Made by a program: the position numbers and the translations under genes. DNA of 64,000 nt. Source: Bacillota bacterium. GTDB lineage: Bacteria; Bacillota; Dethiobacteria; DTU022; UBA8154. The notes below the pieces were generated by a model. The model did not search any database. It saw nothing but the letters and a program-made list of their open reading frames with translations, and was not told the origin of the DNA. Positions within the stretch are counted from its first letter, which is position 1, and the number at the start of each line of letters is the position of its first letter. Location: assembly GCA_012728375.1 (NCBI GenBank), contig JAAYFF010000009.1, forward strand, positions 8,940 to 72,939, written 5' to 3'. Positions 2,179 through 48,480 of this stretch are shown here, piece after piece.

Positions 2179-2262
2179 GTGAAGCACGGGGACGGTTCTT
2201 CTGCTTCATATCTGCAAAAAAGAACAATGAAATGAAGCAGAAGAACCGTCCCCGTGCTTCAC
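2179..2262. repeat. Paired-hairpin inverted repeat element (family A, GGGACGGTTCT core), copy 1: perfect 31-bp arms, 22-nt spacer
   Basis: gtgaagcacggggacggttcttctgcttcat ... atgaagcagaagaaccgtccccgtgcttcac. The right arm overlaps the stop codon of the cyclase gene. Each arm is itself a tgaagca/tgcttca mini-hairpin. Confidence 0.9.
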
Positions 2263-4094
2263 TGGGCGAGCTGATATATTTTTACGGGTTTGCTTTTTCC
2301 TTTGACGGAAATTTCACCCATGGGCTCCAGGGGAATGCGGCCGGCCACTTCTTCATAAACCGTTTCGCTGACGAGAACCTGTCCGGGCTTGGCGTTGGAT
2401 TCCAATCTGGCGGCGAGGTTGACGGCGTCTCCGATGGCGGTATAGTCCATGCGGCTTACGGACCCGATATTCCCGACGACAGCATCGCCGGTATTGATCC
2501 CGATACCGAACTGCAGTGTGACCCCCGCCATTTCCTGGACTTTTTTCTGCAGAGCAGCCCCTTCCCTGGTAATAGCCTGGGCTGCTTTGACCGCCCAGAG
2601 GGGGTGATCCTCCAGGTCCAGGGGTGCATTGAAGAGGACCATGGCCGCGTCGCCAATAAATTTGTCGATGGTCCCTTTGTTTTCAAAAATACAGCGCGTC
2701 ACAATTTCGAAGTATTCGTTGAGAACAGCCACCACGCCCTCCGGGGGAAGTTTTTCCGAAAGGGGGGTAAATCCCCGGATGTCAATAAATAGTATAGAAA
2801 TACGGCGCCGGGTTCCTCCCAGTTTTAAATTTTCCTCGCCGACGGTGAGGATCTGGTCGACGACCTGGGGTGCCACGTAGCGGCCGAAGATACGCGTTAC
2901 CCGCTGCCTGTTGCGCTGCTCGACGACGAAATTGTAGACCAGCGCGGTTATGTAACTCCCCGACAGTGAAATAAGGGGATAAACGCTTTCTACATAGATG
3001 GAACGCTCATTAAAGAGGTTTGAGGTAATGACGAAGAATACAGCGCTCATGGCCAACAGGCCGGCGAATCCCAAAATCGGACGCAGTGCCTGGTAGATGA
3101 ACATGGAGAGCAGTGCCAAAAGAAAGACCAGCAGCAGGTTCAGCCACAATGGAAGGGGGTAGATAGGGCCTGCCTCCAGCAGGGTGTGAAGTATATTGGC
3201 ATGGACTTCGACGCCGTACATGGGGTTGTCCCTGGCAAAAGGAGTAAAATAGTAATCGCCCATCCCCGGTGCATAAAAGCCTACCAGAACTATTTTGTTT
3301 TCAAAGGTGGAGGGAGGGTATGCCTCTTCCACCACCAGATGGTAGGGGAGAACGGGGAAATTTCCCGGTCCTCCGCTGTAATTGATGAGCGTGCATCCTC
3401 CCGGGTCCAGGGGGTATTCGAACTCTCCCAGGGGCAGGATGGAGCGCCCCGGCTCAAAAACTGCGTCCAGGTGCGTATAAAGTTCGTCTAAAGTCATTTT
3501 CTGCGCAAGGGCCCAGATTACATCGTCAAAGGAAGCCAGCGGCCAGCCTTCGTACTCCATCCAGAGAATAGCCCGGCGCAAGATTCCGTCAGGATCGGGC
3601 GTGACATTGACATATCCCGCCTCTGCCACCTCCCGGAGTTCAGGAAGCGGCAGGGTTATGTCAGAAGGCGTAAGAAATCCCCGAATCCGGCTGATTGCCG
3701 GAGGTGCATCGATGGGGTACACGACCGGTGCCGAGCGCGCGGTTGCCTCCACCAGGGCCTTATCATGGCTTCTTTCCCTGGACGGTTCGGAAATGATGAT
3801 ATCAAATCCTACAACCGATGCTCCGCCCTCTGTCAGGACATCCAGCAGCCTGGCGTGGATATCCCTCTCCCACGGCCACCTGCCAAGCTTTTCCAGGCAG
3901 CTTTCCGTAATCCCGACGATGAGAATATCGCTGCAGGGGTCTTCTGCTCCGCGCAGTGAAAAGCGCAGGTCCAGCGAGCTTTTCTCCAAATTGCCGAAAA
4001 GGTTAAAATAGCAGAGTATGAGGGCCAGAATTCCCAAACCGCCCCCAATGACCAAGGATACTGAAAATGAGAAAGAACGATTTTTTTTGCGCAA
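2259..4094 (-). CDS. CHASE2-domain adenylate/guanylate cyclase (class III)
   Basis: N-terminal TM plus a CHASE2-like sensor. The C-terminus has the class III cyclase motifs FIDIRGFT and IGINTGDAVVGNIG. Confidence 0.8.
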   Translation of the reverse strand: MRKKNRSFSFSVSLVIGGGLGILALILCYFNLFGNLEKSSLDLRFSLRGAEDPCSDILIVGITESCLEKLGRWPWERDIHARLLDVLTEGGASVVGFDIIISEPSRERSHDKALVEATARSAPVVYPIDAPPAISRIRGFLTPSDITLPLPELREVAEAGYVNVTPDPDGILRRAILWMEYEGWPLASFDDVIWALAQKMTLDELYTHLDAVFEPGRSILPLGEFEYPLDPGGCTLINYSGGPGNFPVLPYHLVVEEAYPPSTFENKIVLVGFYAPGMGDYYFTPFARDNPMYGVEVHANILHTLLEAGPIYPLPLWLNLLLVFLLALLSMFIYQALRPILGFAGLLAMSAVFFVITSNLFNERSIYVESVYPLISLSGSYITALVYNFVVEQRNRQRVTRIFGRYVAPQVVDQILTVGEENLKLGGTRRRISILFIDIRGFTPLSEKLPPEGVVAVLNEYFEIVTRCIFENKGTIDKFIGDAAMVLFNAPLDLEDHPLWAVKAAQAITREGAALQKKVQEMAGVTLQFGIGINTGDAVVGNIGSVSRMDYTAIGDAVNLAARLESNAKPGQVLVSETVYEEVAGRIPLEPMGEISVKGKSKPVKIYQLAQ

Positions 4095-4339
4095 AAGAAA
4101 CTCCTTTATTGTCTAGATGGTATTATTCTCTATTTTTCATTTTATTTTACATTCCATAAAAAATAGATTTTTCCTGCCCACGGTTATTTTTAATTTTTAT
4201 TAAAAAAAATTTTATAAAAAAGAAGGAAATTTGTTTAGGATGGAGAATATGTGTTATGAATAAAAGATATCATATAATAAAAGATGTTCTTTGGGGGCAG
4301 GTTTTCCCTGGAGTTCTTTTAAAAAAAGGAGGAAAAAAG

Positions 4340-4912
4340 ATGTTGTTAAAGGGTTCAAAGACTGAGAGGAATATTTTAACGGCTTTTGCAGGGGAGTCCC
4401 AGGCCAGGAACCGCTATAATTATTATGCCAGTCAGGCCAAGAAAGAAGGGTTCGTACAAATATCGGCAGTTTTTGAAGAAACGGCCAACCATGAGAAGGA
4501 GCATGCCAAGAGGCTCTTTAAGCTGCTGGAGGGAGGGGAAGTGGAGATTCAGGCCTCTTTTCCCGCCGGAGTAATCGGCACGACGCTGGAAAATCTCCGC
4601 GCCTCCGCGGGTGGAGAAAACCATGAATGGACGGATATGTATCCCTCATTCGCCGCAGTAGCCAGGGAAGAAGGTTTTAACGAGATAGCAGACATATTCG
4701 AAGCTATCGCTGTGGCGGAGAAGCAGCATGAAAAGCGCTTTTTGGGCCTTCTCGCCAATGTGGAAAACGGCAAAGTCTTTAAAAAGGAAAAGAGTATTTC
4801 CTGGATATGCCGCAACTGCGGTTACCGCCATGAGGGAGAGGAAGCACCGGAGACATGTCCTGCCTGCAACCATCCCCAGGCTTATTTTGAAGTCCTCGCT
4901 GAAAATTGGTAA
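4340..4912 (+). CDS. rbr: Rubrerythrin (ferritin-like di-iron domain + C-terminal rubredoxin-like CxxC..CxxC)
   Basis: ExxH di-iron motifs and a C-terminal CRNCGY...CPACNHP. An AAAGGAGG RBS precedes the ATG at 4340. The ORF-track start at 4256 is rejected. Confidence 0.85.
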
Positions 4913-4972
4913 GAAACGGGAAGCGCGGGCAAAAAAGAGTGCACTAAAAAAACTAGGAGGCCTAGAGGAGAA

Positions 4973-5359
4973 ATGACGGAGAGCAGACAGGTTTACAAAT
5001 GTGAAATTTGCGGGAATATAGTGGAGATACTGCACGGGGGCAAGGGGCAGCTCGTCTGCTGCAACAAGCCCATGAAGCTGCTGGAAGAGAACACCGTTGA
5101 TGCTGCTCTGGAGAAGCATGTCCCGGTGGTGGAGAAAACGGAAAAAGGCGTGAAGGTTAAGGTGGGGAGCGTAGCCCACCCCATGGAAGAAAAGCATTAT
5201 ATCGAGTGGGTGGAGATTATCTCCGGCGATAAAATTTGCCGCAAGTGGCTGAAGCCGGGAGAGGTGCCGGAGGCGGATTTTGTTGTCGATTCCGGTGAGG
5301 TCGTTGCCAGGGAATACTGCAATCTCCACGGCCTGTGGAAAAGTTCAGGGGCTGTGTGA
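4973..5359 (+). CDS. dfx: Desulfoferrodoxin (2Fe superoxide reductase)
   Basis: N-terminal desulforedoxin motif CEICGN...CC and a C-terminal neelaredoxin/SOR domain. The RBS is GGAGGCCTAGAGGAG. Confidence 0.85.
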
Positions 5360-5426
5360 AAGAGAAATGTATTGAAGAGAAAGATTATAAGGGAAAAAAA
5401 CTGTTTTAAGGGAACTTTTCGGTGCA

Positions 5427-5457
5427 ACCCGCAAAAATTTTGCGGGTTTTTCTTTTT
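5427..5457 (+). terminator. Rho-independent terminator after dfx
   Basis: cccgcaaaaattttgcggg stem followed by a T-run. Confidence 0.8.
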
Positions 5458-5638
5458 CCACGGCAAAAAATATGTTCTGCTGCAGGAAACGGTATTTGCT
5501 TTTAGCGTCTTAGACAGCAAAAGTATTTTTTAATGCTATTTTAATTTTTAGATGCTGTTTTTTTATGACTTTTTAATTTTAATTTTTATAAAATAGTTAG
5601 GCCTGCGGCCGGGCATTGAGTCTGGAAGGAGTGAAAAA

Positions 5639-6121
5639 ATGTCTAACAAGCTGCCCGACGTTGAAGAAATCCTGGAGGGTGCCGTAAAAAAGCACGGGTT
5701 AGCCGTAGTTCCGCTTTTGCAGGAAATCCAGGAGCATTTCCGCTATTTGCCCGAGGAAGTGCTGCGCAAACTTTCCCAAAAGACCGGAATTCCCTTGATA
5801 GAAATCTATCACGCGGCAACCTTTTATAATTCATTATACTTAACACCGAGAGCCAAGCATCAGATCAATATTTGTACCGGAACTACCTGTCATATCCGGG
5901 GGAGCGGAAAACTTATCGAAGAAGTCTTCCAGGTTTTAGGCATAGGTCCCGGGGAGACAACTTCCGACGGCAATTTTACGCTGGAAACGGTGAACTGTCT
6001 CGGCTGCTGTGCCGTTGCCCCCGCGATGGTTGTGGACGGGAAGTATTATGGAAACCTTACACCCGGCGATGTCCGGGAAATCCTCAATAAAATTATGGAA
6101 AAGGCAGCAGTGGAAGAATAA
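5639..6121 (+). CDS. NuoE/HndA/HydC-like [2Fe-2S] thioredoxin-like NADH dehydrogenase 24 kDa-type subunit
   Basis: CxxxxC...CxxxC motifs (CTGTTCH...CLGCCAVAP). RBS GGAAGGAG. Confidence 0.8.
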   Translation: MSNKLPDVEEILEGAVKKHGLAVVPLLQEIQEHFRYLPEEVLRKLSQKTGIPLIEIYHAATFYNSLYLTPRAKHQINICTGTTCHIRGSGKLIEEVFQVLGIGPGETTSDGNFTLETVNCLGCCAVAPAMVVDGKYYGNLTPGDVREILNKIMEKAAVEE

Positions 6122-6161
6122 CAGTTTCCGGAAAGCCGGAAAAAGATGCTGCCGGCAGGGG

Positions 6162-8033
6162 GTGTATTGTTTGGAAGCGACGAGTAGGTTGGCAGTACCG
6201 GAAGATTTAGCCGGCTTGCGGGAAAGGCTCAAGGATAGGCTTGATGAAAAAAAGCCGCGGCTTGTGGTATGCGGTGATACTGGCTGTACGGTTCGCGACT
6301 CGCGCGAGCTCGCCGCGGCGATAGAGAAGATTCTCAGCGAGCAGGGGCTTAGCGACAGAGTAGAACTTAAGGTTACGGGCTGCCTCGGTTTTTGTGAAAA
6401 GGGGCCTCTGATGCTGGTCTTCCCGGGCGCGATCCTTTATCAGAAGGTTCAGCCGTCGGATGCCGGGGAGATCGTGGAGAAGACGGTGCTGAAAAACGAG
6501 CTTGTGGAAAGGCTTCTCTATACGGACCCGGAGAGCGGACTTCCCGTTGCCTGTGCCTATGATATACCTTTCTATAAGCTGCAAAACCGCGCTCTTTTGG
6601 AAACTTGCTGGTATATCAACCCGCTTGATATTTATGATTATATTGCCCGGGGCGGTTATGCGGCCCTGGCAAAAGTTCTGGGGGGGATGACCCCTGAGGC
6701 TGTGATTGCTGAGATGAAGGAGGCCAGGCTGCGCGGCAGGGGAGGGGCCGGCTTTGCTACAGGGCTTAAATGGGAATTTTGCCGCTCTTCCCCCGGTGAG
6801 GAGAAGTATATTCTCTGCAATGCCGACGAGGGGGACCCGGGTGCTTTTATGGACAGGAGCCTCCTGGAGGGCAATCCCCATGCAGTGCTCGAGGGCATGA
6901 TCATTGCCGCGTATGCTGTGGGGGCGAAGGAAGGAGTTATTTATATCAGAATTGAGTATCCCACTGCGGTTCTTAAACTGGAAGAGGCAGTGCGGCAAGC
7001 CCGGGAGCTGGGCCTTCTGGGGAAGGATATTTTCGGTTCGGGCTTTGATTTTGACGTGATCATTAGCAAAGGTGCCGGCGCTTTTGTCTGCGGCGAAGAG
7101 ACCGCTCTGATCCGTGGGGCTGAAGGGAAGGTGGGCGAGCCGCGCCAGAAGCCTCCTTTCCCGGCAGATGTGGGCTTCAGGGGCAAGCCCACGGTCATAA
7201 ATAATGTGGAAACCTTTGTGAACGTGCCGCTGGTTATTAATCAAGGAGCCGCCCTTTATCACAGTACCGGCACTGAGAGTTCCGGGGGGACTAAGATTTT
7301 CTGCCTGGTGGGCAAGGTGAAAAACACGGGGCTTGTGGAGGTCCCCTTCGGCACCACGCTGCGGCAGATTATTTTTGGCATCGGAGGCGGCATCAAGGAC
7401 GGCAAGAAATTTAAGGCGGTGCAGACCGGCGGTCCTTCCGGCGGCTGCCTTCCCGAAGCAATGCTTGATTTAAAGGTTGATTTCAGCGATCTCGCGCAGG
7501 CGGGCTCGATTATGGGTTCCGGCGGTATGATCGTTATGGACGAGGACACGTGCGTTGTGGATGTAGCCCGTTATTTTCTGCAGTTCCTGAAAAGCGAATC
7601 CTGCGGGAAATGCTTTTCATGCCGGGTGGGGATTGACCGCTTGCTGGAAATCTTGGACCGCATTATCGCGGGAAACGGCTCTGTTGAAGATCTCGCTCTC
7701 CTCGAGGAGCTGGCGGTGACCGTTAAGGATACGACCATGTGCGGATTGGGCCAGACTTCGGCAAACCCCGTTCTCTCTACGCTGAGGTATTTCCGCGACG
7801 AATACCTCGCGCATGTAAGGGACAAGCGCTGCCCCGCGGGGGTCTGCCGCTCCCTTTTCCGTTACCGTATCGATGAAGATCTTTGCGCCGGCTGCGGTGC
7901 CTGCGCGGAGCAGTGTCCTGCCGGGGCCATCAAGGAGACCGATGAAGGCTGCTACCGCATTGATCACGGCCTGTGCACCGTTTGCGGTGCCTGTGCAGAA
8001 ACCTGTGCGCTTGACGCGATCACGAAAGATTAG
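6162..8033 (+). CDS. NuoF/HndC/HydB-like NADH-binding flavoprotein subunit with N-terminal 2Fe-2S and C-terminal 2x[4Fe-4S] ferredoxin domains
   Basis: FMN/NADH motifs GRGGAGFATG and GEETAL, a SLBB domain, a NuoF C-terminal Cys cluster and two CxxCxxCxxxCP motifs. The start is uncertain. The in-frame ATGs lie inside nuoE, and GTG 6162 or TTG 6171/6189 are the alternatives. Confidence 0.75.
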   Translation: MYCLEATSRLAVPEDLAGLRERLKDRLDEKKPRLVVCGDTGCTVRDSRELAAAIEKILSEQGLSDRVELKVTGCLGFCEKGPLMLVFPGAILYQKVQPSDAGEIVEKTVLKNELVERLLYTDPESGLPVACAYDIPFYKLQNRALLETCWYINPLDIYDYIARGGYAALAKVLGGMTPEAVIAEMKEARLRGRGGAGFATGLKWEFCRSSPGEEKYILCNADEGDPGAFMDRSLLEGNPHAVLEGMIIAAYAVGAKEGVIYIRIEYPTAVLKLEEAVRQARELGLLGKDIFGSGFDFDVIISKGAGAFVCGEETALIRGAEGKVGEPRQKPPFPADVGFRGKPTVINNVETFVNVPLVINQGAALYHSTGTESSGGTKIFCLVGKVKNTGLVEVPFGTTLRQIIFGIGGGIKDGKKFKAVQTGGPSGGCLPEAMLDLKVDFSDLAQAGSIMGSGGMIVMDEDTCVVDVARYFLQFLKSESCGKCFSCRVGIDRLLEILDRIIAGNGSVEDLALLEELAVTVKDTTMCGLGQTSANPVLSTLRYFRDEYLAHVRDKRCPAGVCRSLFRYRIDEDLCAGCGACAEQCPAGAIKETDEGCYRIDHGLCTVCGACAETCALDAITKD

Positions 8034-8053
8034 AGGTGGATAAAGTGGTACAA

Positions 8054-8752: not shown

Positions 8753-8756
8753 TGTA

Positions 8757-10340: not shown

Positions 10341-10354
10341 GGAGGCGCGTGAGA

Positions 10355-10843: not shown

Positions 10844-10919
10844 AAAGTTTTTGTGTTATAATTGAAGGACAGGCCCGGCAGGGGCGTCAATAAAGCGTAA
10901 AGGGCAGTGAGATGCACGG

Positions 10920-12888: not shown

Positions 12889-12893
12889 GGTGA

Positions 12894-14009: not shown

Positions 14010-14184
14010 TTATTTTCCCCCTCCTTAACTTATATGCGCATCCTTGCGGTTTTATTTCTGCCGCAAAAGGACAAGCGAAGCAGGGGGACTGTTCCATCGT
14101 CTTCCTTCGCTTCGCTACGGAGACGCTCGTACCGTCCCCGCAGCTTCACTTATTTATTTACCTCTGTTACTCTTTTTTTTAAGT

Positions 14185-15588
14185 TTATTCGTTGCGAATG
14201 GCCACCATGGGGCTGACGCGAATAGCGCGGCTGGCTGGATACAGCCCTGCTGCCAGGCCGATAAAGATGGAAAAAACCAGGGCAAAGCCGGCCAGCCAGA
14301 CGGGGATAACGGAGATATTGGTGGCAGGGCCGCCCATACCCCGCTGGATATAATCCGCGCTGATGCGGTTAATAATCTCCGAGGCTCCGTAACTGAGGCC
14401 AAGGCCGAGGATTCCCCCGAAAAGACCGATCAGCGCGGCTTCCATCAGGAAGATGGAGCGGATATCGGCAAAGGAAGCGCCGATGACCTTCATAATGCCG
14501 ATTTCCCTGGTGCGCTCGTAAATGGACATGATCATCGTGTTCGTAATTCCCAGGGCAGCTACGAACAGGGTAATTCCGCCGATTCCTCCCAGGATGGCCT
14601 GCATGGTGCGGGAAGTGTTTTCAATACCTTCAAGGGAATCGGCCATGGACCAGGCATTATAGCCCCTTTCCCGCAGCTCTTTGGAGATTTCTTTGGTCTG
14701 CGCGACATCTTTGGTCCTGACCATGATGGAATTATAATCGTTGCTCCGGTCTTCCCTGCGGTTTCCCCGAGATCCGGAAGCCCTGCCGGTGGAGACCATC
14801 ACTCCGCCTCCGGAGATTATTACTTCTTTGGCCATGGGTCCCAGCATTTGTTTGGAGCTGTTTGCGCCCTGCATCATAAAATCCCGCATCCTTTTAATGT
14901 CATGAATGGACCCGTAGACTTGCCAGGAACGGTCCATGTTTGTTTCATCCAGGATACCTACGACGAATAAATTTTGTTTGCGCTCGTTACCCGCCTGATT
15001 GCGGATGGTAAGCCGGATCCGTTGCTCAAGCAGTTCCGCGGGGTCCTGCTGCTGTGGCCCTTCCCCCATCATCCCGCCTCCGCGTCTGGCAGCCCGTTCG
15101 TCCCAGAAGTTATTGATGACCTGCGATCCGGCTACAATGGCGAAGCGGTCCTCCGGAGTAAGGAGCCTGCCGTGGGAGACGGTAAATTCCAGCTCTTCCA
15201 TTGCTGCGGGGTCAATTCCCACGATGCTCAGGTAGCCTTTTTTTCGGCCTAATTGAGCCTCCCCGTCAATATTGTACACCGGAGAAACGGCGGTAACGCC
15301 CGGGATGGCTTTCAACTCTTCGACGGTTTCATCGGTCATACGTTTTTCTTCACCCGTGGGATTGCCGTTTTCGTCATATCGCATCCCGGGATGGACGTTG
15401 ATAATGTTCAGGCTTCCCCACTGGGCCATACTTTTTTCCATGCTGACCCTAAGCCCGATTCCCAGCGAGATCATCACTACGATGGAGGCGGTCCCAATGA
15501 CGACCCCCAGGCAGGTGAGGATGGTGCGGGCTTTGCGGCGCCATAAATTCTTGTTTGCCATCAGAAGTAGATCTCTTTTACGCATCAA
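14185..15588 (-). CDS. ABC transporter permease, FtsX/MacB-like with large periplasmic domain
   Basis: N-terminal TM, a long extracytoplasmic domain and a C-terminal 3-TM FtsX domain. It overlaps the upstream gene by 11 nt. Confidence 0.8.
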   Translation of the reverse strand: MMRKRDLLLMANKNLWRRKARTILTCLGVVIGTASIVVMISLGIGLRVSMEKSMAQWGSLNIINVHPGMRYDENGNPTGEEKRMTDETVEELKAIPGVTAVSPVYNIDGEAQLGRKKGYLSIVGIDPAAMEELEFTVSHGRLLTPEDRFAIVAGSQVINNFWDERAARRGGGMMGEGPQQQDPAELLEQRIRLTIRNQAGNERKQNLFVVGILDETNMDRSWQVYGSIHDIKRMRDFMMQGANSSKQMLGPMAKEVIISGGGVMVSTGRASGSRGNRREDRSNDYNSIMVRTKDVAQTKEISKELRERGYNAWSMADSLEGIENTSRTMQAILGGIGGITLFVAALGITNTMIMSIYERTREIGIMKVIGASFADIRSIFLMEAALIGLFGGILGLGLSYGASEIINRISADYIQRGMGGPATNISVIPVWLAGFALVFSIFIGLAAGLYPASRAIRVSPMVAIRNE

Positions 15589-20318: not shown

Positions 20319-20321
20319 GGT

Positions 20322-26822: not shown

Positions 26823-27596
26823 ATGTCGAATCATTTGCCGGATAAAGTAAATGCAAAAAAAAATGAGGCCGCCCGCATCCGCATCCTTGGGCGGCCTGTT
26901 GACTGCCTGACCGGTGATGCGGCTGTGGGGAGGATCATGCGGGCGTGGAAGGAGAAAACATTTCTTCATGTTGTTACCGCTAATGCGGAAATGATCTACC
27001 AGAGCACCCGTGACGGGGAACTGGCAGCAATAATTGAAGAGGCCGGGCTGGTTACAGCAGACGGTATTGGTGTGGTTCTGGCTTCGCGCCTTTTAGGCAG
27101 GCCTGTTCCTGAACGGGTGGCTGGTTATGATTTGATGCTGGAATGTCTGAAACAGGCTGCCCGCCAAAAGGTTCCGGTTTTTTTCTTTGGGGCTCGTCCC
27201 GAAGTCCTGCAGGAGGCTGTTGCGGCTGCTGTCCGCAGGTTTCCCGGATTACGGGTGGTGGGAAGCAGGGACGGCTATTTCGGCGAAGAGGAAGAAGAAG
27301 GGATTGCACACCTGATCTCACAGCAGAAACCGGGACTTTTGCTGGTGGCCATGGGTGTTCCCAAACAGGAAAAATGGATCTTCCGCTTTCGGGACATGCT
27401 CCCCCCCTGCGTTGCCATTGGGGTTGGGGGGAGCTTTGACGTACTTTCCGGTAAGGTCCGCCGGGCACCGTCCTGGGTGCAGCGCGCGGGGCTGGAATGG
27501 CTTTACCGCATTGCCCGTGAGCCTTCACGTCTGAAAAGGGCGGCAAATCTTCCCCTTTTTCTCCTGTCCGTGCTGTTGCAGGTTCTACGGCGGTGA
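26823..27596 (+). CDS. tagA: WecB/TagA/CpsF family glycosyltransferase
   Basis: Typical TagA length and motifs (VVTANAEM, VFFFGARPEV, GVPKQEKWI). Confidence 0.8.
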   Translation: MSNHLPDKVNAKKNEAARIRILGRPVDCLTGDAAVGRIMRAWKEKTFLHVVTANAEMIYQSTRDGELAAIIEEAGLVTADGIGVVLASRLLGRPVPERVAGYDLMLECLKQAARQKVPVFFFGARPEVLQEAVAAAVRRFPGLRVVGSRDGYFGEEEEEGIAHLISQQKPGLLLVAMGVPKQEKWIFRFRDMLPPCVAIGVGGSFDVLSGKVRRAPSWVQRAGLEWLYRIAREPSRLKRAANLPLFLLSVLLQVLRR

Positions 27597-27666
27597 AGCA
27601 TAGGGACGGTTCTCCTGCTTCAAGAAAAAGAAAAGGTGAAGCAAAAGAACCGTCCCCGTGCTTCAC
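27593..27666. repeat. Paired-hairpin inverted repeat element (family A), copy 2: 30-bp arms (4 mismatches), 13-nt A-rich spacer
   Basis: gtgaagcatagggacggttctcctgcttca ... gtgaagcaaaagaaccgtccccgtgcttcac. It overlaps the stop codons of both convergent genes, tagA and the dehydrogenase. Confidence 0.9.
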
Positions 27667-28721
27667 TAGAGGTGGCCGACTACGAGGTCTCCGACTTCTT
27701 CCGTGCTGTGTCCCATTTTACCGGCTGAAAGGCTGCGGATATCTTTGGCACAGACGGCCATGACCGCTTTTTCAATGGCCAAGGCAGCTTCTTTTTCTCC
27801 CAGGTGATCGAGCATCATCCCTCCGGCGCAGATTGACGCCAGGGGGTTGATAGTGTTGGTGCCGGCATATTTGGGGGCCGAGCCGCCAATGGGTTCGAAC
27901 ATGGAGGTTCCTGCAGGGTTGATATTGCCCCCTGCGGCAATCCCCATTCCTCCCTGGATCATTGCCCCGAGATCGGTGATGATATCTCCGAACATATTAT
28001 CCGTGACGATAACGTCAAATTGCTCCGGGTTTTTGACCATCCACATGCAGATGGCATCCACATGCGCATAATCTTTTTGAATATCGGGATACTCTTCGCC
28101 AATTTCATGAAAAACCCGTTCCCAGAGGTCGAATGCGTAGGTGAGGACATTGGTCTTCCCGCAGAGGGTGAGCTTTTTCTTCCGGTTGCGCTCCCGGCAA
28201 TACTCGAAGGCATAACGCAGGCATCTCTCCACTCCCATGCGGGTATTGATTGATTCCTGAACAGCAACCTCATAGGGGGTCCCTTTGCGCAGGAAACCGC
28301 CGCTTCCGGCATAAAGGCCTTCAGTGTTTTCCCTTACCACAACAAAGTCAATATCCTCCGGGCCTTTGTCTTTGATGGGGGTTTCAATTCCCGGATAAAG
28401 CTTGACCGGGCGCAGATTGATGTACTGGTCCAGTTCAAACCGCAGCGTAAGAAGGATTCCCTTTTCCAGGATGCCGGGTTTAACCTCGGGATGCCCGATG
28501 GCCCCCAGGAATATTGCCTGATATTGTTTTAGCTCCTCTATGGCTCCCTCCGGGAGCACTTCCCCTTTTTGCAGGTAACGCTCTCCTCCGTAGTCAAATT
28601 CCGTAAAATCCAGGCGAAATTTAAATTTTTCAGCCGCAGCTTTCAGCACTTTAACACCCTCCCGGACCATTTCCGGCCCGGAGCCGTCCCCAGGTATAAC
28701 CGCGATCTTGTAGCTTTTCAT
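27666..28721 (-). CDS. Isocitrate/isopropylmalate dehydrogenase family enzyme (tartrate dehydrogenase/LeuB-like)
   Basis: YKIAVIPGDGSGPE N-terminus, the NLRP motif and GDIITDLGA. The start was trimmed to MKSYKIAV, which has a GAGGAGGG RBS. Confidence 0.75.
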   Translation of the reverse strand: MKSYKIAVIPGDGSGPEMVREGVKVLKAAAEKFKFRLDFTEFDYGGERYLQKGEVLPEGAIEELKQYQAIFLGAIGHPEVKPGILEKGILLTLRFELDQYINLRPVKLYPGIETPIKDKGPEDIDFVVVRENTEGLYAGSGGFLRKGTPYEVAVQESINTRMGVERCLRYAFEYCRERNRKKKLTLCGKTNVLTYAFDLWERVFHEIGEEYPDIQKDYAHVDAICMWMVKNPEQFDVIVTDNMFGDIITDLGAMIQGGMGIAAGGNINPAGTSMFEPIGGSAPKYAGTNTINPLASICAGGMMLDHLGEKEAALAIEKAVMAVCAKDIRSLSAGKMGHSTEEVGDLVVGHL

Positions 28722-34265: not shown

Positions 34266-34369
34266 TGACAATCCCCCTTGGATTTTTGTTTTTGTGCTGC
34301 ATTTACTAAGAAGACGCCGGTAAAAGGAAAATGTTCCCTGACAATTGAAAATTTTTCGGGGCAGAGGAA

Positions 34370-34426
34370 ACAGGGGACGGTTCTCTGTTTCCCTAAATGA
34401 AGCAAAAGAACCGTCCCCTTGCTTCA
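34370..34426. repeat. Paired-hairpin element (family A), copy 3 (degenerate left arm)
   Basis: gaaacaggggacggttctctgtttc ... tgaagcaaaagaaccgtccccttgcttca. It lies between tRNA-Thr and the downstream gene. Confidence 0.85.
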
Positions 34427-34462
34427 AAGAAATAGGCCCGCACTTATGGCGGGCTATAATGT

Positions 34463-34538
34463 TGGAGCCGGCAAGAGGACTTGAACCCCCAACAGGCGGA
34501 TTACGATTCCGCTGCTCTACCAATTGAGCTATGCCGGC
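34463..34538 (-). tRNA. tRNA-Thr (anticodon CGU)
   Basis: The 76-nt cloverleaf has a GCCGGCA acceptor stem, a TAGCTCAATTGGTAGAGCA D-arm, anticodon loop AT-CGT-AA, T-loop GGTTCAAGTCC, and a 3' CCA. Confidence 0.85.
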
Positions 34539-38262: not shown

Positions 38263-38295
38263 AGCCGGCCAATCCGTGCAAAGGAGCGGGAGTCT

Positions 38296-38854: not shown

Positions 38855-39090
38855 CTCTTATCCAGAGCGGGGGAGAGACGGGCTCTATGAACCCCGGCAA
38901 CCGGACCTTTAAGGAGGGCGTAGCGCTGTTTTGTCTGCGCAGAAGGCAAATGCCCTTCCTTACGGATCGACTGGTGCCAAGTCCCACAGGGCCGGTATGG
39001 CGGCATTTTTGCCGGCTGTCCTGGGAGATAAGAGGTTAGGTTTTGCATGACCTCTGCCTTCCAGGCACGGGGTTTTTTCTTTTATCTTTT
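38855..39090 (+). promoter_or_regulatory. SAM-I (S-box) riboswitch with terminator/attenuator, leader of metK
   Basis: cTCTTATCcAGAGcGGgGGAGaGAC...CCCGGCAACC...GGTGCCAA.TCC...GGGAGATAAGAG, then a T-run at about 39075-39086. A TTGACA-17-TATGAT promoter lies at about 38803-38831. Confidence 0.85.
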
Positions 39091-39139
39091 AGCGGAAGTT
39101 TATCTGTCTTTAAGCTTGCAGGAAAGGGAGGAATTATTT

Positions 39140-40348: not shown

Positions 40349-40413
40349 TTTAGCCTTTAGATAACGGAGTTGAAGCTAAGTTTAGCATTTTTCCCGGGAG
40401 GGACTTCTAATAA

Positions 40414-42642: not shown

Positions 42643-42724
42643 ATGCTAAATTAAAAGCCAAGGCTTGCTCTTTTCTTTTCTTTTCTTGTCTTGTCTTGTC
42701 TTGTTTCTTATTTTACAGCAGAGA

Positions 42725-42916
42725 TTATACAGAGAGCATTCTTTTTTCCTTTTTCATTCCCATTTTCATATACCGGTTAATTTGCTGGTCCAGCTGCCTG
42801 GAAATCTGGAGCATTTCGGCACTTACCTGATGATTTTCTTCGTATAGTTTGTTTAACTGTGTTTTTAACCGTTCGATTTCGGAAATGATATCCGGCAACT
42901 CCATATTTTGTCCCAT
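42725..42916 (-). CDS. Spo0E-like sporulation regulatory (aspartyl-phosphate phosphatase) family small protein
   Basis: Helical 63-aa protein with an SxxLDxxI-like 'SRQLDQQINRYM' motif. The start could instead be 42904. Confidence 0.45.
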   Translation of the reverse strand: MGQNMELPDIISEIERLKTQLNKLYEENHQVSAEMLQISRQLDQQINRYMKMGMKKEKRMLSV

Positions 42917-43086
42917 TGTTCTAATCCTTTCATAGAAAAATTTGGGCTGGTAAGAGCCTGGCGGCGATTGGAAAACAAACATCGAGTGCCTTTGTCTAAG
43001 ATCCGTTTAGCAGATCTATTCAACACAAAAGTGCAATTTCCTTTAAAAATTTGTCATTTTATTTACAAAATTGGGAGGCTGTGTAA

Positions 43087-43821
43087 GTGCCTACGGGAAC
43101 TATTTTAAAAATGTTTTTTCCGCCCCGCTGTCCTTTTTGCCGGAAAATTCTGAAGGGGTTTCCCGTGGAAGACGGCACTTATCCGGTTTGGGCGAAAAAG
43201 GAAGCAATCCCGGAGGTGCTCTGCGGAAGATGCGCCTCCGAATTGCCATGGCTTAAGGATGATTGCTGCCCCAGGTGTGGCCGTGAGTTGGACGGGAAAG
43301 GAATTTGTTCCTGCAGGGAAGAGAAATATGCTTTTGAAAATTGCTGTGCAGTGAGCCGCTATACGGGTGAGGTCCGGGAAGCCCTCCGCTTTTTTAAATA
43401 TCACCAAAAAAAGTGGCTCGCAGAACCTCTGGGGAAACTTTTATCCTGGAAGCTGACTTCTTTGAACTGGGCCCGCTCTATTGAAGCCGTTGTTCCTATT
43501 CCCCTGACGCCCCGGCGCCTGGCCGCGAGGGGTTATAACCAGGCTGCCCTGTTGGCCGAAATAGTGGGAAAAGAAACAGGCCTCCCGGTCCTGGATGTTT
43601 TGGAACGGGTTAAAGAAACGGAGAGCCAAACCGGCATGAAGCGCGAGGAAAGATGGAAAAATCTTCAGGGGGCTTTTCGCTGCCGAGAAAGAGGGCAAAA
43701 ATATGGCCATCTGCTTCTTATTGACGATATATTAACCACGGGTGCAACGGCCCATGAGGCGGCCTGTGCTTTAAGGAACGGGGTTGCCGGACGGGTGAGC
43801 GTGGCTGTTTTTGCCCGCTAG
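43087..43821 (+). CDS. comFC: ComF family protein (ComFC-like phosphoribosyltransferase)
   Basis: N-terminal CxxC x2 zinc ribbon and the PRTase motif LLIDDILTTGAT. Confidence 0.8.
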   Translation: MPTGTILKMFFPPRCPFCRKILKGFPVEDGTYPVWAKKEAIPEVLCGRCASELPWLKDDCCPRCGRELDGKGICSCREEKYAFENCCAVSRYTGEVREALRFFKYHQKKWLAEPLGKLLSWKLTSLNWARSIEAVVPIPLTPRRLAARGYNQAALLAEIVGKETGLPVLDVLERVKETESQTGMKREERWKNLQGAFRCRERGQKYGHLLLIDDILTTGATAHEAACALRNGVAGRVSVAVFAR

Positions 43822-43933
43822 TCGGCAGATGCAGGCAAGAGCGGGTGCAGCGCCATCGGGCTTTTAGCTGAAAGCAAAGTTTTCCTTTTGCCCGCGGTGC
43901 TGCTGTAGTCGGCGAAAAGTTTTCCTGCCAAGG

Positions 43934-44614
43934 TCAGGTGGCTGTTGTTTTTTTCCAGAACAGCCCCAGAACGCCGATTGCCGCCCCGAAAACAAAGCCC
44001 CCGATATGTGCCCACCATGCTACTGCCTGGGCAGTGGCGCCTGCCATGAGAAAGGCGTTTAGGAGCTGTAGGATAAACCAGAATATGAGAAAAAACTTGG
44101 CGGAGATGCTGGCGGTCGTGAGAAGAAAACCGATGGGGATAAGCGCGAGCACTCTGGCCCGCGGGAAAAAAATAAAATATATACCGAGGACTCCGGCAAT
44201 AGCCCCGCTGGCTCCGATAACCGGTACCGGGGAGGCGGGGTTTGTGAGGATGTGCGCCAGATTGGCCGCGGCTCCGGCTGCCAGATAAAAAAGCAGGTAA
44301 CCGCCGTGTCCCAGCCGGTCTTCTACATTGTCCCCGAAAACCCAGAGATAAAGCATGTTGCCGAGTAGATGGAACCAGCTTCCGTGAAGAAAGGTGGCGC
44401 TTATAAAAGGGAACCATGCTGCCGGGAGTAGTGCTCCGCTGCCGGACAGTTCAAAAAATTGCTGCGGGATAACCCCGTAGTGGACAAAGAGCTGCAGCAG
44501 CTCTTCCCGGGTCAGCGTTGTTTGATAAAAAAATATCAGGACATTAACAATGATCAGGAAAATATTAATAAACGGGAACTTCTTCGGGCGCACATTATCG
44601 CGCAAAGGAATCAT
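43934..44614 (-). CDS. Rhomboid family intramembrane serine protease
   Basis: GASGAIAG active-site Ser, a downstream His and 6 TM segments. Confidence 0.8.
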   Translation of the reverse strand: MIPLRDNVRPKKFPFINIFLIIVNVLIFFYQTTLTREELLQLFVHYGVIPQQFFELSGSGALLPAAWFPFISATFLHGSWFHLLGNMLYLWVFGDNVEDRLGHGGYLLFYLAAGAAANLAHILTNPASPVPVIGASGAIAGVLGIYFIFFPRARVLALIPIGFLLTTASISAKFFLIFWFILQLLNAFLMAGATAQAVAWWAHIGGFVFGAAIGVLGLFWKKTTAT

Positions 44615-44769
44615 TTATAAACTCCTTTTTTTCACTTATACATTTATTATATCATACCCGGATCCGTGACAGAATAACAAAAACAAGGAGCCGGAAACGG
44701 CAGCGCAAGAGAATACAGGAAATAAAAACCTTCACCAAAAGGATATGATAACAGGGCGGGAAAGTGAGC

Positions 44770-45678
44770 ATGGGAAAAAACGGCGATGACAAAAAGATAA
44801 CATCCCCGTCATACCTGGCTAAAATTTTACGGGAAAGGGGGCTGGCCCCGCGGCGCTCGCAAGGTCAGCATTTCCTTGTGGACGAAAATATCCTGGGCAG
44901 AATTCTGGCCGCGGCATCCCTGGAAGAAAGCGATTATGTGCTGGATATCGGGGCCGGTCCCGGCGCTCTTTCTCTGGCTATGGCGGAAAAAGTTGCCGGA
45001 GTGATCGCTGTGGAGCAAGACAAAGGCCTGGTGGAGCTGCTGAAAGAGCAGGCTGATATACGGGGGCTTAACCGTCTGCATATAGTCGAAGGAGATGTCC
45101 GCCGCCTGGATTTGGAAGAAATCTGCCGGGAGCGCTGGGGGCGGGCATTGGGCCAGGAAGGGCACAATGTCAAGGTTGTGGCAAACCTGCCCTATTATTT
45201 GACGACGCCGCTTCTTTTTCAGCTCCTGCAGGGCTCGCTGCCCCTTAAGCTGCTGGTGTTAATGGTGCAGCTCGAAGTAGCACGGAGAATAAATGCTGCG
45301 GCGGGACAAAAAGATTACGGCCTGCTGACGGTCCTGTGCAGATATTATACAGAGCCCCGCTTTCTTTTCAAGGTCTCACCGGGGGTTTTTTATCCGCGGC
45401 CTGCGGTAGAATCGGCAGTGGTGCGGCTGGATGTTGTTCCGCCGCGACCTGTGGAAACCCGTCAGGAAATTCTTTTCTGGAAAATTGTCAGGGCAGCTTT
45501 TCAAAAACGGCGCAAAACAATCCTTAATGCCCTGGAAGGAATAGAAATGATGGGGAAGGCCGACTGGACCAAGCTCTTGAAAAAAGCCGGCATCCAGCCC
45601 AACCGCCGGGGAGAAACTCTCTCTTTAATGGAATTTGCAAAGTTGAGCGAGATACTTTATAATGTAAGTGTTCCTTAA
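44770..45678 (+). CDS. rsmA: 16S rRNA (adenine1518/1519-N6)-dimethyltransferase RsmA/KsgA
   Basis: GQHFL, LDIGAGPGALS and the NLPY motif. Confidence 0.85.
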   Translation: MGKNGDDKKITSPSYLAKILRERGLAPRRSQGQHFLVDENILGRILAAASLEESDYVLDIGAGPGALSLAMAEKVAGVIAVEQDKGLVELLKEQADIRGLNRLHIVEGDVRRLDLEEICRERWGRALGQEGHNVKVVANLPYYLTTPLLFQLLQGSLPLKLLVLMVQLEVARRINAAAGQKDYGLLTVLCRYYTEPRFLFKVSPGVFYPRPAVESAVVRLDVVPPRPVETRQEILFWKIVRAAFQKRRKTILNALEGIEMMGKADWTKLLKKAGIQPNRRGETLSLMEFAKLSEILYNVSVP

Positions 45679-45725
45679 TATATTATGTCGACCCGTGTAG
45701 GAATAAACGGAAAGAAGGCCGTCCT

Positions 45726-46202
45726 ATGATATTTCAGAGCCCTACTCGTGGGAAGATGACTCTGGAGGAGACGTTCCAGGAGATTATTGCGTACATCAAG
45801 GAACAACCCGGGGAACAATACAAACTCATTATTGGAACAGATTCACAAGCCCATTACGGAGAAGAAGTCAATTTTGTAACCGCGATTATTATTCACCGAG
45901 TTGGGAAGGGAGGGCGCTATTTTTACCGAAGTGAAAAACATCACTTTTTGCAAACTTTAAGGCAAAGAATCTTTTATGAGACCTCTCTGAGCCTTGATGT
46001 TGCCGGACGATTTTCTTCCCTGCTGTCAAAAAACGGTTTTTCTCAGCTTAATGTGGAAATACACATGGATGTGGGTATCCGCGGAGATACCCGGGAACTA
46101 ATCCGGGAAATGGTGGGGATGGTGGCCGGCAGCGGCTATGATGCCCGGATTAAACCCGATTCATACGGTGCCAGCAAGGTTGCTGACAAGTATACAAAAT
46201 AA
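45726..46202 (+). CDS. RNase H-like YkuK/DUF458 family protein
   Basis: LIIGTDSQ ... VTAIIIHRVGKGGRYFY pattern. Confidence 0.6.
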   Translation: MIFQSPTRGKMTLEETFQEIIAYIKEQPGEQYKLIIGTDSQAHYGEEVNFVTAIIIHRVGKGGRYFYRSEKHHFLQTLRQRIFYETSLSLDVAGRFSSLLSKNGFSQLNVEIHMDVGIRGDTRELIREMVGMVAGSGYDARIKPDSYGASKVADKYTK

Positions 46203-46250
46203 ATAAATTAAAATTAAAATAATAGAAAAAGATAAAAAAAGAAAAAAAAC

Positions 46251-46319
46251 TTGACATTGGCTTTGATAATTGGTAAAATCCAGAGTTCCCTTGACAAAAT
46301 AGAGGATTTATGTTAAAAT
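46251..46319 (+). promoter_or_regulatory. Two tandem consensus sigma-A promoters (TTGACA-17-TAAAAT twice) with upstream A-tract UP element, driving veg
   Basis: TTGACA 46251-56 / TAAAAT 46274-79, and TTGACA 46291-96 / TAAAAT 46314-19. The A-rich tract spans 46203-46250. Confidence 0.65.
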
Positions 46320-46336
46320 GCTCTTGAGGTGATGCC

Positions 46337-46615
46337 ATGATGGCCGCAAAAAACACCCTGTTGCAGATCCGCAAAGAACTCGAATCGCATGTTGGGGAAA
46401 AAATCAAGTTGCGGGCAAACAGGGGTCGTCGGAAATCTTATGAAAAGGTAGGGGTCCTTGAAAATACCTATCCCTCTATTTTTGTCGTCAGAGTTGATGA
46501 AGAAAATTATCACCAGAGATATTCCTTCAGTTATGCGGATGTCCTTACCGAAACCGTGGAACTAAGTCTTTGGGGCGGGGACAATAAATTGATTGCCCTT
46601 TGCGCCGGAAAATAA
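46337..46615 (+). CDS. veg: Veg (DUF1021) protein
   Basis: Strong similarity to B. subtilis Veg (GRRKSYEKVGVLENTYPSIFVV...YSFSYADVLTETVEL). Confidence 0.85.
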   Translation: MMAAKNTLLQIRKELESHVGEKIKLRANRGRRKSYEKVGVLENTYPSIFVVRVDEENYHQRYSFSYADVLTETVELSLWGGDNKLIALCAGK

Positions 46616-46821
46616 CAAAACTTGAACTTTCTATATCTATAAATAATATAAGAGCAACTTAAAATATCGTACTTACCATATTTCCTCCCGTATTTTCTAA
46701 AGCAGATAAGCGGGATTTTTTTATTTATCGAAGACTTTTCCCGCCGTGTCATAACTTCACCTCCTTTCTAATAACTATAATATGTGAAGGCGCATATTGT
46801 GATAAAGGAGGGATGTAGATT

Positions 46822-48387
46822 ATGGGGCGGAAAGCTTTAAAAGAGGGAAAAATAGAGCTGCTGACAGCTAAGCTTGACTTTGCATCGCTGGTAGGAGAAA
46901 CTGTTTTACGTTTCTTTTTAACAAAAGATTTGCTTTTTCAGGAAGAACCGGCCAGAGATAAGGACCGCCGGCCTCTTCCGCTGGGTGACCTGGCTGCATG
47001 GGTCAGCCTCATGGAGGTGAACATTGCAGAGAAAAATAAGGTTGTCGTCCAGGGAAAGGTGGAGGGAAAGGCCGTTTTTTATTCCACTGCCGGACCTAAA
47101 GAAGTGGGATGGGGGGCGGACGAATTCTCCAAAGAGGCTGATGTTCCCGGTGCATTGCCGGGAATGACGGTAAACGGGCATGGCCGCATTTTTTTCCTGG
47201 ATGACAGCCGTGAACCCCTGGAGGAAGAGGGCAAATGGCTGTACCAGCTACAGATCGGGATAGAAATATTGCTGACGGTTTCCGACCCGCAGCAGCTTGA
47301 AATCGGTGTCGGGGCAAAAAATATTCTTCCGGAGCAGGTTGTCCGGGGAGTAATTTCTGCCGAGGAGCTGGTGGGAGAAAAAAGTGTTCCTTTAACCCTG
47401 ACCAGTGAGCTGGATTTTCCTGAACAACTCGATTATATTAAAACATTATCCTGCAGCCTGGCTGATTACTCTTATGAAAAGGAGAAAGAAGGGCTTCTTT
47501 TTAAGGGCGAGCTGGTTACCGTCATCTATTTTATTGCCGGAAAGGAAAGGGGTTTTCAGGAAAGCAGGCAGACCTTTTCGCAGCAGATACCTTTCCCGCT
47601 GAAGAAAGGGGCGGAAGTTGTCTTTTTCCCGCAAGTAGAGTACGCCGCACACGACTTGCTGGGGAAAAAGGCCCGACAAAGGGTGTATGTAGATATTTAC
47701 TTAAGGGCCACCCGTCTGGTCCAGCAGGAGGTCCTCACCGATATCCGCGAAGGTGAGGTAAAAAAGGAATATCTTATGCTTCCCAAGCCTGCAGGAATAG
47801 CCCGGGAACCCCTTGAGCTGATGCAGAGGCTGGCTTTTCCCTTCCCCAGAGAGATTACTGCAGGACCCTGCCGCCTTATTAAACTGGAGGCCGATGTCCA
47901 GGAAAACAGGGTGGTTGTCAGCGGAATCCTGGAAAAAACAATCTATTATATTCCTGCACCGGAAAGGGAGCAGGCCGGGGAGGAAGAAGAACAGTGGCCG
48001 CTGGCTATTAAAATGGAGGAAGACTTTAACCGTTCCCTCCAATTGCCCGGCCTGGAGCCCGGCTCCAGCGTTATTGTTTATTTCAGTCCCGGAAGGACCG
48101 AATTTGCTGCTGTTGAAGCGGCGACCCTGCAGGTTACACATGCTTATCTGGAGGCTAAAGCGTGGGAAACGAATGAATATTCTGTAGTGGTTCCTTTTCG
48201 CGTGCCTCCTGAAACCAGTTTGGTAATTTATGCCGTTCATCCGGGTGACACCCTTTTAAAAATTGCCCGCTTGTACGGGGTCAAGACATCTACAATTGTC
48301 AGGGCTAACAACCTCAGCGACGAAGCTACCCCGCCTGCCGGCAGCAAGCTGATGATTCCTCTTTTTTATGAAGGAAATAATGAGTAA
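46822..48387 (+). CDS. DUF3794-repeat protein with C-terminal LysM domain (SipL/SpoVID-like sporulation protein candidate)
   Basis: The C-terminal LysM is YAVHPGDTLLKIARLYGVKTSTIVRANNL. The N-terminal two-thirds consists of repeated beta-rich modules. Confidence 0.5.
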   Translation: MGRKALKEGKIELLTAKLDFASLVGETVLRFFLTKDLLFQEEPARDKDRRPLPLGDLAAWVSLMEVNIAEKNKVVVQGKVEGKAVFYSTAGPKEVGWGADEFSKEADVPGALPGMTVNGHGRIFFLDDSREPLEEEGKWLYQLQIGIEILLTVSDPQQLEIGVGAKNILPEQVVRGVISAEELVGEKSVPLTLTSELDFPEQLDYIKTLSCSLADYSYEKEKEGLLFKGELVTVIYFIAGKERGFQESRQTFSQQIPFPLKKGAEVVFFPQVEYAAHDLLGKKARQRVYVDIYLRATRLVQQEVLTDIREGEVKKEYLMLPKPAGIAREPLELMQRLAFPFPREITAGPCRLIKLEADVQENRVVVSGILEKTIYYIPAPEREQAGEEEEQWPLAIKMEEDFNRSLQLPGLEPGSSVIVYFSPGRTEFAAVEAATLQVTHAYLEAKAWETNEYSVVVPFRVPPETSLVIYAVHPGDTLLKIARLYGVKTSTIVRANNLSDEATPPAGSKLMIPLFYEGNNE

Positions 48388-48395
48388 GTAAGATG

Positions 48396-48480
48396 TGAAG
48401 CAAAGGGACGGTTTGAAGCATGGGGACGGTTCTCCTGCTTCATTCAGAGAATGAAGCAGGAGAACCGTCCCCATGCTTCA
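48396..48480. repeat. Paired-hairpin inverted repeat element (family A), copy 4: half-unit + perfect 29-bp arms, 9-nt spacer
   Basis: tgaagcaaagggacggtt + tgaagcatggggacggttctcctgcttca ... tgaagcaggagaaccgtccccatgcttca. The right arm contains the queT stop codon. Confidence 0.9.

Follow-up and report, generated by a model that had tools for sequence, protein, structure and literature searches.

A short paired repeat recurs at gene 3' ends in a 64,000-nucleotide stretch of DNA from a Bacillota bacterium (contig JAAYFF010000009.1 of assembly GCA_012728375.1), hereafter the window. Each locus consists of two inverted copies of a palindromic unit, and the loci very probably are non-autonomous REPIN-type elements, i.e., doublets of repetitive extragenic palindromic (REP) units, that belong to a Bacillota family linked to REP-associated tyrosine transposases (RAYTs) and that sit on gene ends with a TGA donated as the stop codon. 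The family itself is, with comparable likelihood, the cognate end sequence of one clade of RAYT (TnpA-REP-like) Y1 HUH tyrosine transposases found across the Bacillota. The overlap of units with stop codons is systematic. The element is a known kind in a little-described Gram-positive version.

The repeat unit and its copies in the window

An alignment of 323 units from the window and related loci defines the unit as an imperfect palindrome of 31–32 nt, (G/A)TGAAGCA-N-G-GGGACGGTTCT-NN-TGCTTCA-TT, with sharp boundaries at -10 and +21. Written by its stems, (G)TGAAGCA-NG-GGGA-CGGT-TCTY-N-TGCTTCA(TT), the unit comprises a 7-bp outer stem (TGAAGCA/TGCTTCA), a 2/1-nt asymmetric internal loop, and a 4-bp inner stem closed by a CGGT tetraloop, so that a single unit forms a REP-like imperfect palindrome of about 11 bp. 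An earlier note on this DNA, made from the sequence alone, had recognized the outer stem; the 15-nt "loop" that it placed inside that stem holds the inner stem and the tetraloop. Pairing within the inner stem (GGGA:TCTY) amounts to 100% (A-T), 100% (G-C), 99% (G.T or G-C), and 84% (paired). Covariation of the stems is weak across the aligned units, with only the pair -9:19 above expectation, because the sequence is so conserved. The head of the unit, (G/A)TGAAGCA, contains no GTAG; its TGA is paired with TCA inside the stem, and the outermost three bases of each end are TGA, reading inward.

The GGGACGGTTCT core has eight matches in the window without a mismatch, which form four +/- pairs (2189/2242, 27603/27646, 34374/34407, and 48423/48461), whereas the shuffled window gives a mean of 1.0 match and a maximum of 5. 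A position weight matrix (PWM) built from related loci recovers every canonical window unit at 46–53 bits and has no matches in shuffles. All four loci were also read directly in the sequence as head-out inverted pairs, which bears out the common architecture that the earlier note had described.

Copy 1 (2179–2262) consists of a left unit (2179–2210, +) and a right unit (2231–2262, -) separated by a 20-nt spacer, with PWM scores of 50–52 bits and inverted arms of 34 nt that are 97% complementary; it is flanked by a cyclase gene (2259–4094, -) and an MFS gene (772–2112, -). Copy 2 (27593–27666), identified by PWM and direct reading, has its left unit at 27593–27624 (+) and its right unit at 27635–27666 (-), and occupies the entire gap between the convergent tagA gene and a dehydrogenase gene of the isopropylmalate/isocitrate type; its 30-nt arms are 87% complementary (4 mismatches). 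Copy 3 (34366–34427) pairs a degenerate left unit (34366–34392, +), in which a different but self-complementary stem (GGAAACAG...CTGTTTCC, 34366–34392) surrounds an intact core, with a canonical right unit (34396–34427, -). Its flanks are tRNA-Thr (34463–34538, -) and the 5' region of a beta-propeller gene, and a small GC hairpin (34437–34456, GGCCCGC-ACTTAT-GGCGGGC, one mismatch) lies between the tRNA-Thr(CGU) and the copy. Copy 4 (48396–48481) begins with a partial duplication of the head, the extra half unit GTGAAGCAAAGGGACGGTT at 48396–48414, followed by a doublet (48413–48444, +; 48450–48481, -) whose 32-nt arms are 100% complementary; it lies between queT and a convergent SipL/LysM gene with its TAA stop at 48385–48387.

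Measurement of the arms agrees with the earlier description of copies 1 and 4 as perfect (over 31–32 nt) and of copy 2 as carrying four mismatches, and both the degenerate arm of copy 3 and the half unit of copy 4 are present as reported. The four exact pairs are not the whole family in the window, as a PWM scan adds a probable, decayed fifth pair at 14075–14150 (left arm GCGAAGCAGGGGGACTGTTCC; right arm the reverse complement of GTGAAGCTGCGGGGACGGTAC). The left arm of this pair scores 12.6 bits, with 0 matches in shuffles, and the pair lies 35 nt 3' of a minus-strand open reading frame (ORF; 14185–15588); with it, the density is 5 copies per 64 kb. The proposal that every copy lies 3' of a gene holds for the four exact pairs, with the qualification that copy 3 follows tRNA-Thr and not a protein-coding gene.

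Two inverted units are computed to fold into a hairpin of about 30 bp in single-stranded DNA (ssDNA). The predicted energies are -40.9 kcal/mol for copy 1 (z = -14), -41.6 kcal/mol for copy 4 (z = -13.5), -26.4 kcal/mol for copy 2 (z = -9.3), and -17.6 kcal/mol for the degenerate copy 3 (z = -5). Intrinsic (Rho-independent) terminators were considered and rejected, as in the earlier note, since no U-tract directly follows the hairpin: a terminator scan of 1500–3000 returned no terminator-like site, and no T-run follows either arm in the flanks of the four copies, copy 4 being only weakly T-rich (CTTGTGTTTCT). At gathering thresholds, no Rfam family matches the elements; the only matches in the window are a SAM riboswitch and the tRNA-Thr.

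A probable cognate RAYT transposase

Loci or contigs from other genomes or metagenomes that were compared with the window are given L-numbers below. With E. coli RayT as the query, homologues were found in four loci that had been selected by the repeat, each from a different genome (L033, L048, L054, and L075), and each of these RAYT genes is bracketed by units in inverted orientation, [unit+]-RAYT-[unit-]. The earlier note had suggested looking for RAYT genes elsewhere; in related Bacillota they are present and flanked by exactly this unit. The four proteins match Pfam Y1_Tnp (PF01797) with E = 1e-12 to 1e-17, and their scores against the NCBIfam model for REP-associated tyrosine transposases (NF047646, cut-off 80 bits) are 76–91 bits, so that three of the four pass; the IS200 model NF033573 reaches only 16 bits, and the sole PDB match is 4ER8, a TnpA-REP. 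Their HUH motif is NHxHLL, and the motif RYIHQNPVKA (YIHQN) places N at Y+4. An N four residues after the catalytic Y is the signature of TnpA-REP, unlike the TnpA of IS200/IS605 (PMC3333891). In this clade, some 110 aa are added at the C terminus, and matches of this region to helix-turn-helix (HTH) families are weak and all below Pfam cut-offs.

An independent test of the association used metagenome loci fetched by the RAYT protein alone, of which the 38 closest (36–69% identity) were scored for the core. A core lies no more than 260 nt upstream in 21 of the 35 loci with sufficient flank, and no more than 200 nt downstream in 29 of 33, often 11–15 nt past the last codon. At identities of about 37% and below, most RAYT homologues do not have this core. 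Among these distant homologues (30–35% identity, without this core) are segments of 1.05–1.1 kb that are 97–99% identical in unrelated contexts (L152/L154/L155 and L158/L160, from human-gut and other metagenomes) and that behave like mobile insertion sequences.

Close homologues of the RAYT are common in Bacillaceae, where source records name them RayT, transposase, or "REP-associated tyrosine transposase", and RAYT protein clusters are mostly confined to a single contig. Viral contigs do not contain the unit, and no close relative of the RAYT is carried by plasmids. No second RAYT copy turned up in the genomes sampled for the unit's clade, although whole genomes were not searched and copy number was not measured.

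Stop codons within the unit

Three genes of the window end inside the TGAAGCA head of a unit. The TGA of the CHASE2/adenylate-cyclase gene (2259–2261, -) lies in the head of the right unit of copy 1, that of tagA (27594–27596, +), which encodes a WecG/TagA glycosyltransferase, in the head of the left unit of copy 2, and that of queT (48478–48480, -) in the head of the right unit of copy 4. The earlier note had located the tagA stop correctly and had credited the right arm with the stops of three minus-strand genes, which is true of the cyclase and queT; the stop of the dehydrogenase gene is an adjacent TAG (27666–27668) that overlaps the arm of copy 2 by its last base only.

Across related loci, 37 long ORFs end exactly at the TGA of an outward-facing head, compared with 9 that read further in (binomial p = 7e-11), so that the overlap which the earlier note wished to see checked is indeed systematic. 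Gene 3' ends lie within 60 nt of 46% of heads, as against 17% of tails. The proteins that end at the TGA of a unit are full length, or nearly so, by comparison with family models (e.g., TagA aligns over 3–243 of the 247 positions of the TarA model, and the QueT domain is matched over 1–141 of 141 and ends two residues before the stop).

Comparison with element-free genomes indicates which partner contributed the stop. In the window and in L199, which both carry the element, the cyclase ends ...LAQ* at the TGA of the unit, whereas the cyclases of L198 and L200, which lack the element, end 7–9 residues later with TAA (...QLVRDDHAANN* and ...QLSRDQGTHRPAG*). Similarly, genomes without the element have a TagA that is longer by about two residues than that of the window, and at the empty site the stop of tagA is TAA. 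A pre-existing TGA targeted by the element is largely rejected on these grounds. The element cut 7–9 codons from the cyclase gene and therefore supplies its stop, in agreement with the role of stop-codon donor that had been proposed for it. Di Nocera et al. (2013, PMC3733652) had already observed that ORFs beside REPs often take their stop codon (TAG) from the GTAG terminus of the repeat, so that the donation of TGA described here is not new in kind.

Insertion, empty sites, and decay

Presence/absence comparisons at orthologous sites point to real insertions. At the tagA/dehydrogenase junction, the element is missing from L194 (TagA 76% identical), where the two convergent genes have overlapping stop codons (TTTTTAAAGG); in L195 the position is taken by an unrelated terminator hairpin; and L192 and L193, at about 90% nucleotide identity to the window, retain a decayed orthologue of copy 2. 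L192, the closest relative, also has a diverged single unit at the site of copy 3, and is syntenic with the window only up to the boundary of that copy. The copy 1 site is filled in the window and in L199, and empty in L198 and L200, the two genomes with the longer cyclases. In L102, a metagenome-assembled genome (MAG) of the Syntrophomonadaceae, a unit separates two genes whose orthologues overlap in the window. The same locus was considered as an empty site for copy 4 and rejected, as no QueT is encoded there.

No target-site duplication accompanies the elements: in 40 pairs, whichever of four boundary definitions was applied, no direct repeat of at least 4 nt flanks the element. This fits single-strand transposition by a Y1 enzyme and not a miniature inverted-repeat transposable element (MITE) of the DDE type. 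At the empty cyclase sites (L198 4827–4840 and L200 2085–2098), the sequence CAGGGAC(G), which resembles the core GGGGACGG, stands exactly at the position of the element; this may be a coincidence or a hint of homology-guided insertion.

The cores of the orthologous copies 2 and 3 in L192 (10770–10840 and 19985–20025) have decayed to GGCCGGTTCT and GGGAACGGTTTT, whereas those of the window are exact, and copy 1, common to the window and L199, is still a perfect palindrome. The exact cores of the window next to decayed orthologues suggest maintenance, or arm-to-arm correction, in the window lineage.

Distribution and pair architecture in Bacillota

When one genome for each prokaryotic species was scanned for the exact pattern, the unit was found at 108 loci in more than 25 Bacillota genomes. 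This set does not include the window's own organism, which has turned up in metagenomic runs only and has MAGs of Dethiobacteria/Bacillota as the closest relatives that carry a name. Its hosts include Neobacillus, Bacillus sp. REN3, Mesobacillus, Metabacillus, Niallia, and Rossellomorea, as well as MAGs assigned to Syntrophomonadaceae, Dethiobacter, Peptococcaceae, Epulonipiscium, Clostridiales, and Oscillospiraceae. Pairs across these loci have a single orientation, with 69 head-out (+-) and 0 of the opposite arrangement (-+), alongside 114 single units and some stuttered heads. The earlier note had envisaged a REP- or MITE-like family with a constrained position, and the REP side of that suggestion is upheld by this orientation together with the RAYT genes flanked by the unit. 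Both arms of a pair have the same three variable positions in 24% of pairs, compared with 2.9% for random units, an eight-fold difference; the doublets therefore behave as units. Of 212 clusters, 17 lie inside crude ORFs, and local density reaches 15 cores per 8 kb in N. notoginsengisoli.

Many elements have stuttered partial heads (TGAAGCANNGGG, up to GGGACGGTT) at their outer ends, directly upstream of a full unit (e.g., window 48396–48414, L033 5308–5330, L069 3078–3100, L199 1903–1925, and L048 1051–1068). These may be a footprint of the copying mechanism.

In Neobacillus sp. D3-1R (NZ_CP197471.1), all exact-pattern matches on the 4.65-Mb chromosome fall within 184 kb (3,968,001–4,152,000; loci L018, L021, L033, L045, L047, L061, L071, L079, L082, L091, and L104), a stretch that also holds a RAYT gene (about 4,068,227–4,069,012). 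The 88 kb of it that were fetched contain 63 cores, or about one per gene. The cluster could reflect either local spread around the transposase gene or an acquired island rich in REPs. A repeat of about 400 bp adjoins three of the D3-1R doublets (L071 2950–3354; L082 3510–3902 and 6810–7192); it contains hairpins and a small ORF (METFLEFLKEVLKGIVREISAYYFRKSLLETRKPPRRRKVKGGSRKK), and might represent either a further repeat family or a small gene of the toxin-like kind.

Comparison with known systems

The closest parallels are the REPs and bacterial interspersed mosaic elements of E. coli with their TnpA-REP (RayT), and the REPIN-RAYT systems of Pseudomonas (PMC2817692; PMC3116915; PMC3333891). 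Common to these and to the family described here are a unit that is a short imperfect palindrome; inverted doublets with outward-facing heads that form long hairpins; units flanking a Y1 HUH transposase with N at Y+4; a tendency to lie outside genes, at their 3' ends, with no target-site duplication; and an apparently chromosomal transposase, with absence from phages and no close relative on plasmids. The Bacillota system differs in the extra C-terminal region of its transposase, with its sub-threshold HTH matches; in its hosts, which go unmentioned in the cited REP/RAYT surveys; in the retention of one unit across several classes rather than within a single lineage; and in the confinement of the exact copies of Neobacillus sp. 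D3-1R to the surroundings of a RAYT gene. Bertels et al. (PMC5581495) reported Group 1 RAYTs from Clostridia, and described abundant REPINs only for Groups 2 and 3.

TIRtrons and their TIRYT transposases (PMC3733652) share the plan [inverted repeat]-tyrosine transposase-[inverted repeat], with repeats that are partly self-complementary and that occur as singles, dimers, and clusters. Some of their terminal inverted repeats share a GGGGWSAS motif that resembles GGGGACGG here at 7 of 8 positions, a likeness at the level of the motif. The survey that describes them does not mention Firmicutes or Bacillota, and the stop that it describes as donated by REP termini is TAG, compared with TGA here. 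Members of IS200/IS605 (IS608, ISDra2) likewise have a Y1 HUH transposase (PF01797), subterminal hairpins recognized as ssDNA, and no target-site duplication. However, the RAYT described here has N and not Q at Y+4, its best PDB and NCBIfam matches are to TnpA-REP and not to IS200, and the multicopy part of the system is the non-coding doublet, with no duplicated RAYT element among the sampled loci (whole genomes were not searched). The Gram-positive MITEs bcr1 of the Bacillus cereus group and RUP of S. pneumoniae are also small, non-coding, hairpin-forming, and dispersed beside genes, but they are linked to DDE-type insertion sequences and have target duplications, whereas the elements here are Y1-linked and have none. 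A literature search with the core sequence returned only unrelated primer matches, and searches under RAYT/REP with Firmicutes or Bacillus returned no description of this unit.

Alternative explanations

Several observations weigh against the view that the loci are REPIN-type elements of a RAYT-linked family placed on gene ends. The unpaired GTAG tag at the 5' foot, which defines classical REPs, is absent, and in its place stands GTGA (TGA), base-paired in the stem. REPIN-RAYT systems are lineage-specific and co-evolve vertically (bioRxiv 10.1101/2021.07.10.451892), which the cross-class near-identity of the unit does not fit: the same unit extends from Bacilli to Clostridia-like classes, with RAYTs that are 36–69% identical. 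The RAYTs score on both sides of the NF047646 cut-off. By crude gene calls, 31 of 171 element clusters have divergent genes on either side, which makes the preference for 3' ends a tendency rather than a rule. Relatives at about 90% identity share copies 2 and 3, and probably copy 1, which implies that activity is low or old. Finally, neither the window nor the 8 kb to its right (72 kb in total) contains a RAYT gene; to the left, the only available contigs stop inside copy 1.

This last observation also favors the idea that the copies in the window genome are inert fossils of a RAYT-derived family, which persist and decay in an organism that has lost its RAYT. Further in its favor, copies 2 and 3 are already imperfect, with orthologues in the relative at about 90% identity, and the fifth copy is badly decayed. 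Yet copies 1 and 4 are perfect 31–32 nt palindromes with exact cores while the orthologous copies of L192 have decayed, which suggests continued maintenance, and only 72 kb of the genome are in view. Loss of the RAYT with fossil copies left behind is accordingly an unlikely explanation, though one with an appreciable chance of being right.

A role as host RNA or DNA signals is less probable still as the main reason for the elements' persistence. The elements would then be kept as 3' stabilizers, terminators or roadblocks, translation attenuators at the stop, or protein-binding sites, and their position at stop codons would be a selected function, not a tolerated insertion. REPs stabilize upstream mRNA, and Liang, Rudd and Deutscher reportedly found in 2015 that E. 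coli REPs no more than about 15 nt from a stop codon lower translation via ribosome stalling and tmRNA. Such a role would accord with very stable hairpins that begin exactly at stop codons, with the bias of heads over tails toward gene 3' ends, and with cores that are exact in the window next to decay of orthologues elsewhere. On the other side stand the missing U-tract and the absence of an Rfam family match, the variation of insertion sites among relatives, the truncation of a gene tail by the element, and the occurrence of elements between divergent genes as well; the link to a transposase, moreover, explains the conservation of sequence. A host signal is also compatible with exaptation of a mobile element, and hence is not a true alternative origin.

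A conventional MITE, derived by deletion from an insertion sequence with a DDE transposase and having the 31-nt arms as its terminal inverted repeats, fits the shape (inverted arms, 60–85 bp, intergenic, multicopy) but is scarcely credible given the lack of target-site duplications in the 40 pairs, arms that are each a hairpin in themselves, the many single units and head stutters, and a Y1 HUH transposase as the sole gene recurrently enclosed by the arms.

Proposed mechanism and significance

For REPIN-type elements mobilized by a RAYT, the following course may be envisaged. The RAYT would bind the small hairpin in ssDNA and cut and rejoin at its foot, as do the TnpA of IS200/IS605 and the TnpA-REP of E. 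coli, and this action would copy doublets in trans into new sites. Insertions would survive only in 3' regions devoid of promoters. These regions include the last codons of genes, where an insertion would survive mainly if the terminal TGA is in frame and translation stops at once, since either of the other two frames would lengthen the protein by at least 17 residues. The elements would for this reason look like stop-codon donors. Fixed copies would be inherited vertically and then decay. Where transcribed, a copy is predicted to form a hairpin of about 30 bp starting from the stop codon, which could stabilize the 3' end or impede terminating ribosomes. We infer both the mobility of the elements and any role at the RNA level from the sequences.

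A more far-reaching version of this scheme is tentative, and would have to be regarded as possible rather than probable. One REP type, together with a RAYT clade that has an extra and possibly HTH-like C-terminal region, may have remained near-unchanged across Bacillota classes, spreading preferentially near the transposase gene (as in the 184-kb cluster of D3-1R). The inward TGA at both ends might allow the elements to colonize last codons and zero-length convergent junctions, rewriting C-termini and stop codons, and the stop-codon hairpin might have been co-opted for translation-coupled control of 3' ends. If true, Gram-positive bacteria would have a REPIN system that follows other rules than the vertically inherited, lineage-specific systems of proteobacteria.

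The biology of REP/REPIN-RAYT systems is known almost wholly from Proteobacteria. A defined unit and a cognate RAYT clade are now available in cultivable Gram-positive hosts (Neobacillus, Bacillus sp. REN3), with dense local clusters and perfect doublets, and clean filled and empty sites exist for study. Annotators should expect such elements to supply stop codons and to shorten C-termini, and the identity of the unit across classes bears on the question of whether such systems are strictly vertical.

Additional observations

At least two copies of the rRNA operon of Bacillus sp. REN3 are followed by a unit, some 430 nt downstream of the 5S rRNA (L043 554–1092 and L084 4469–4887), with flanks that are 94% identical and located at contig ends. 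This contig-end repeat was considered as a transposase-bearing element and rejected, as it is the flank of the rRNA operon (5S rRNA). In the window's own organism, the Logan short-read contigs L201 and L202 start (position 1) exactly at the inner arm of copy 1; the element therefore breaks assemblies. The SAM (S-box) riboswitch of the window is located at 38855–39034 (+) and scores 67 bits.

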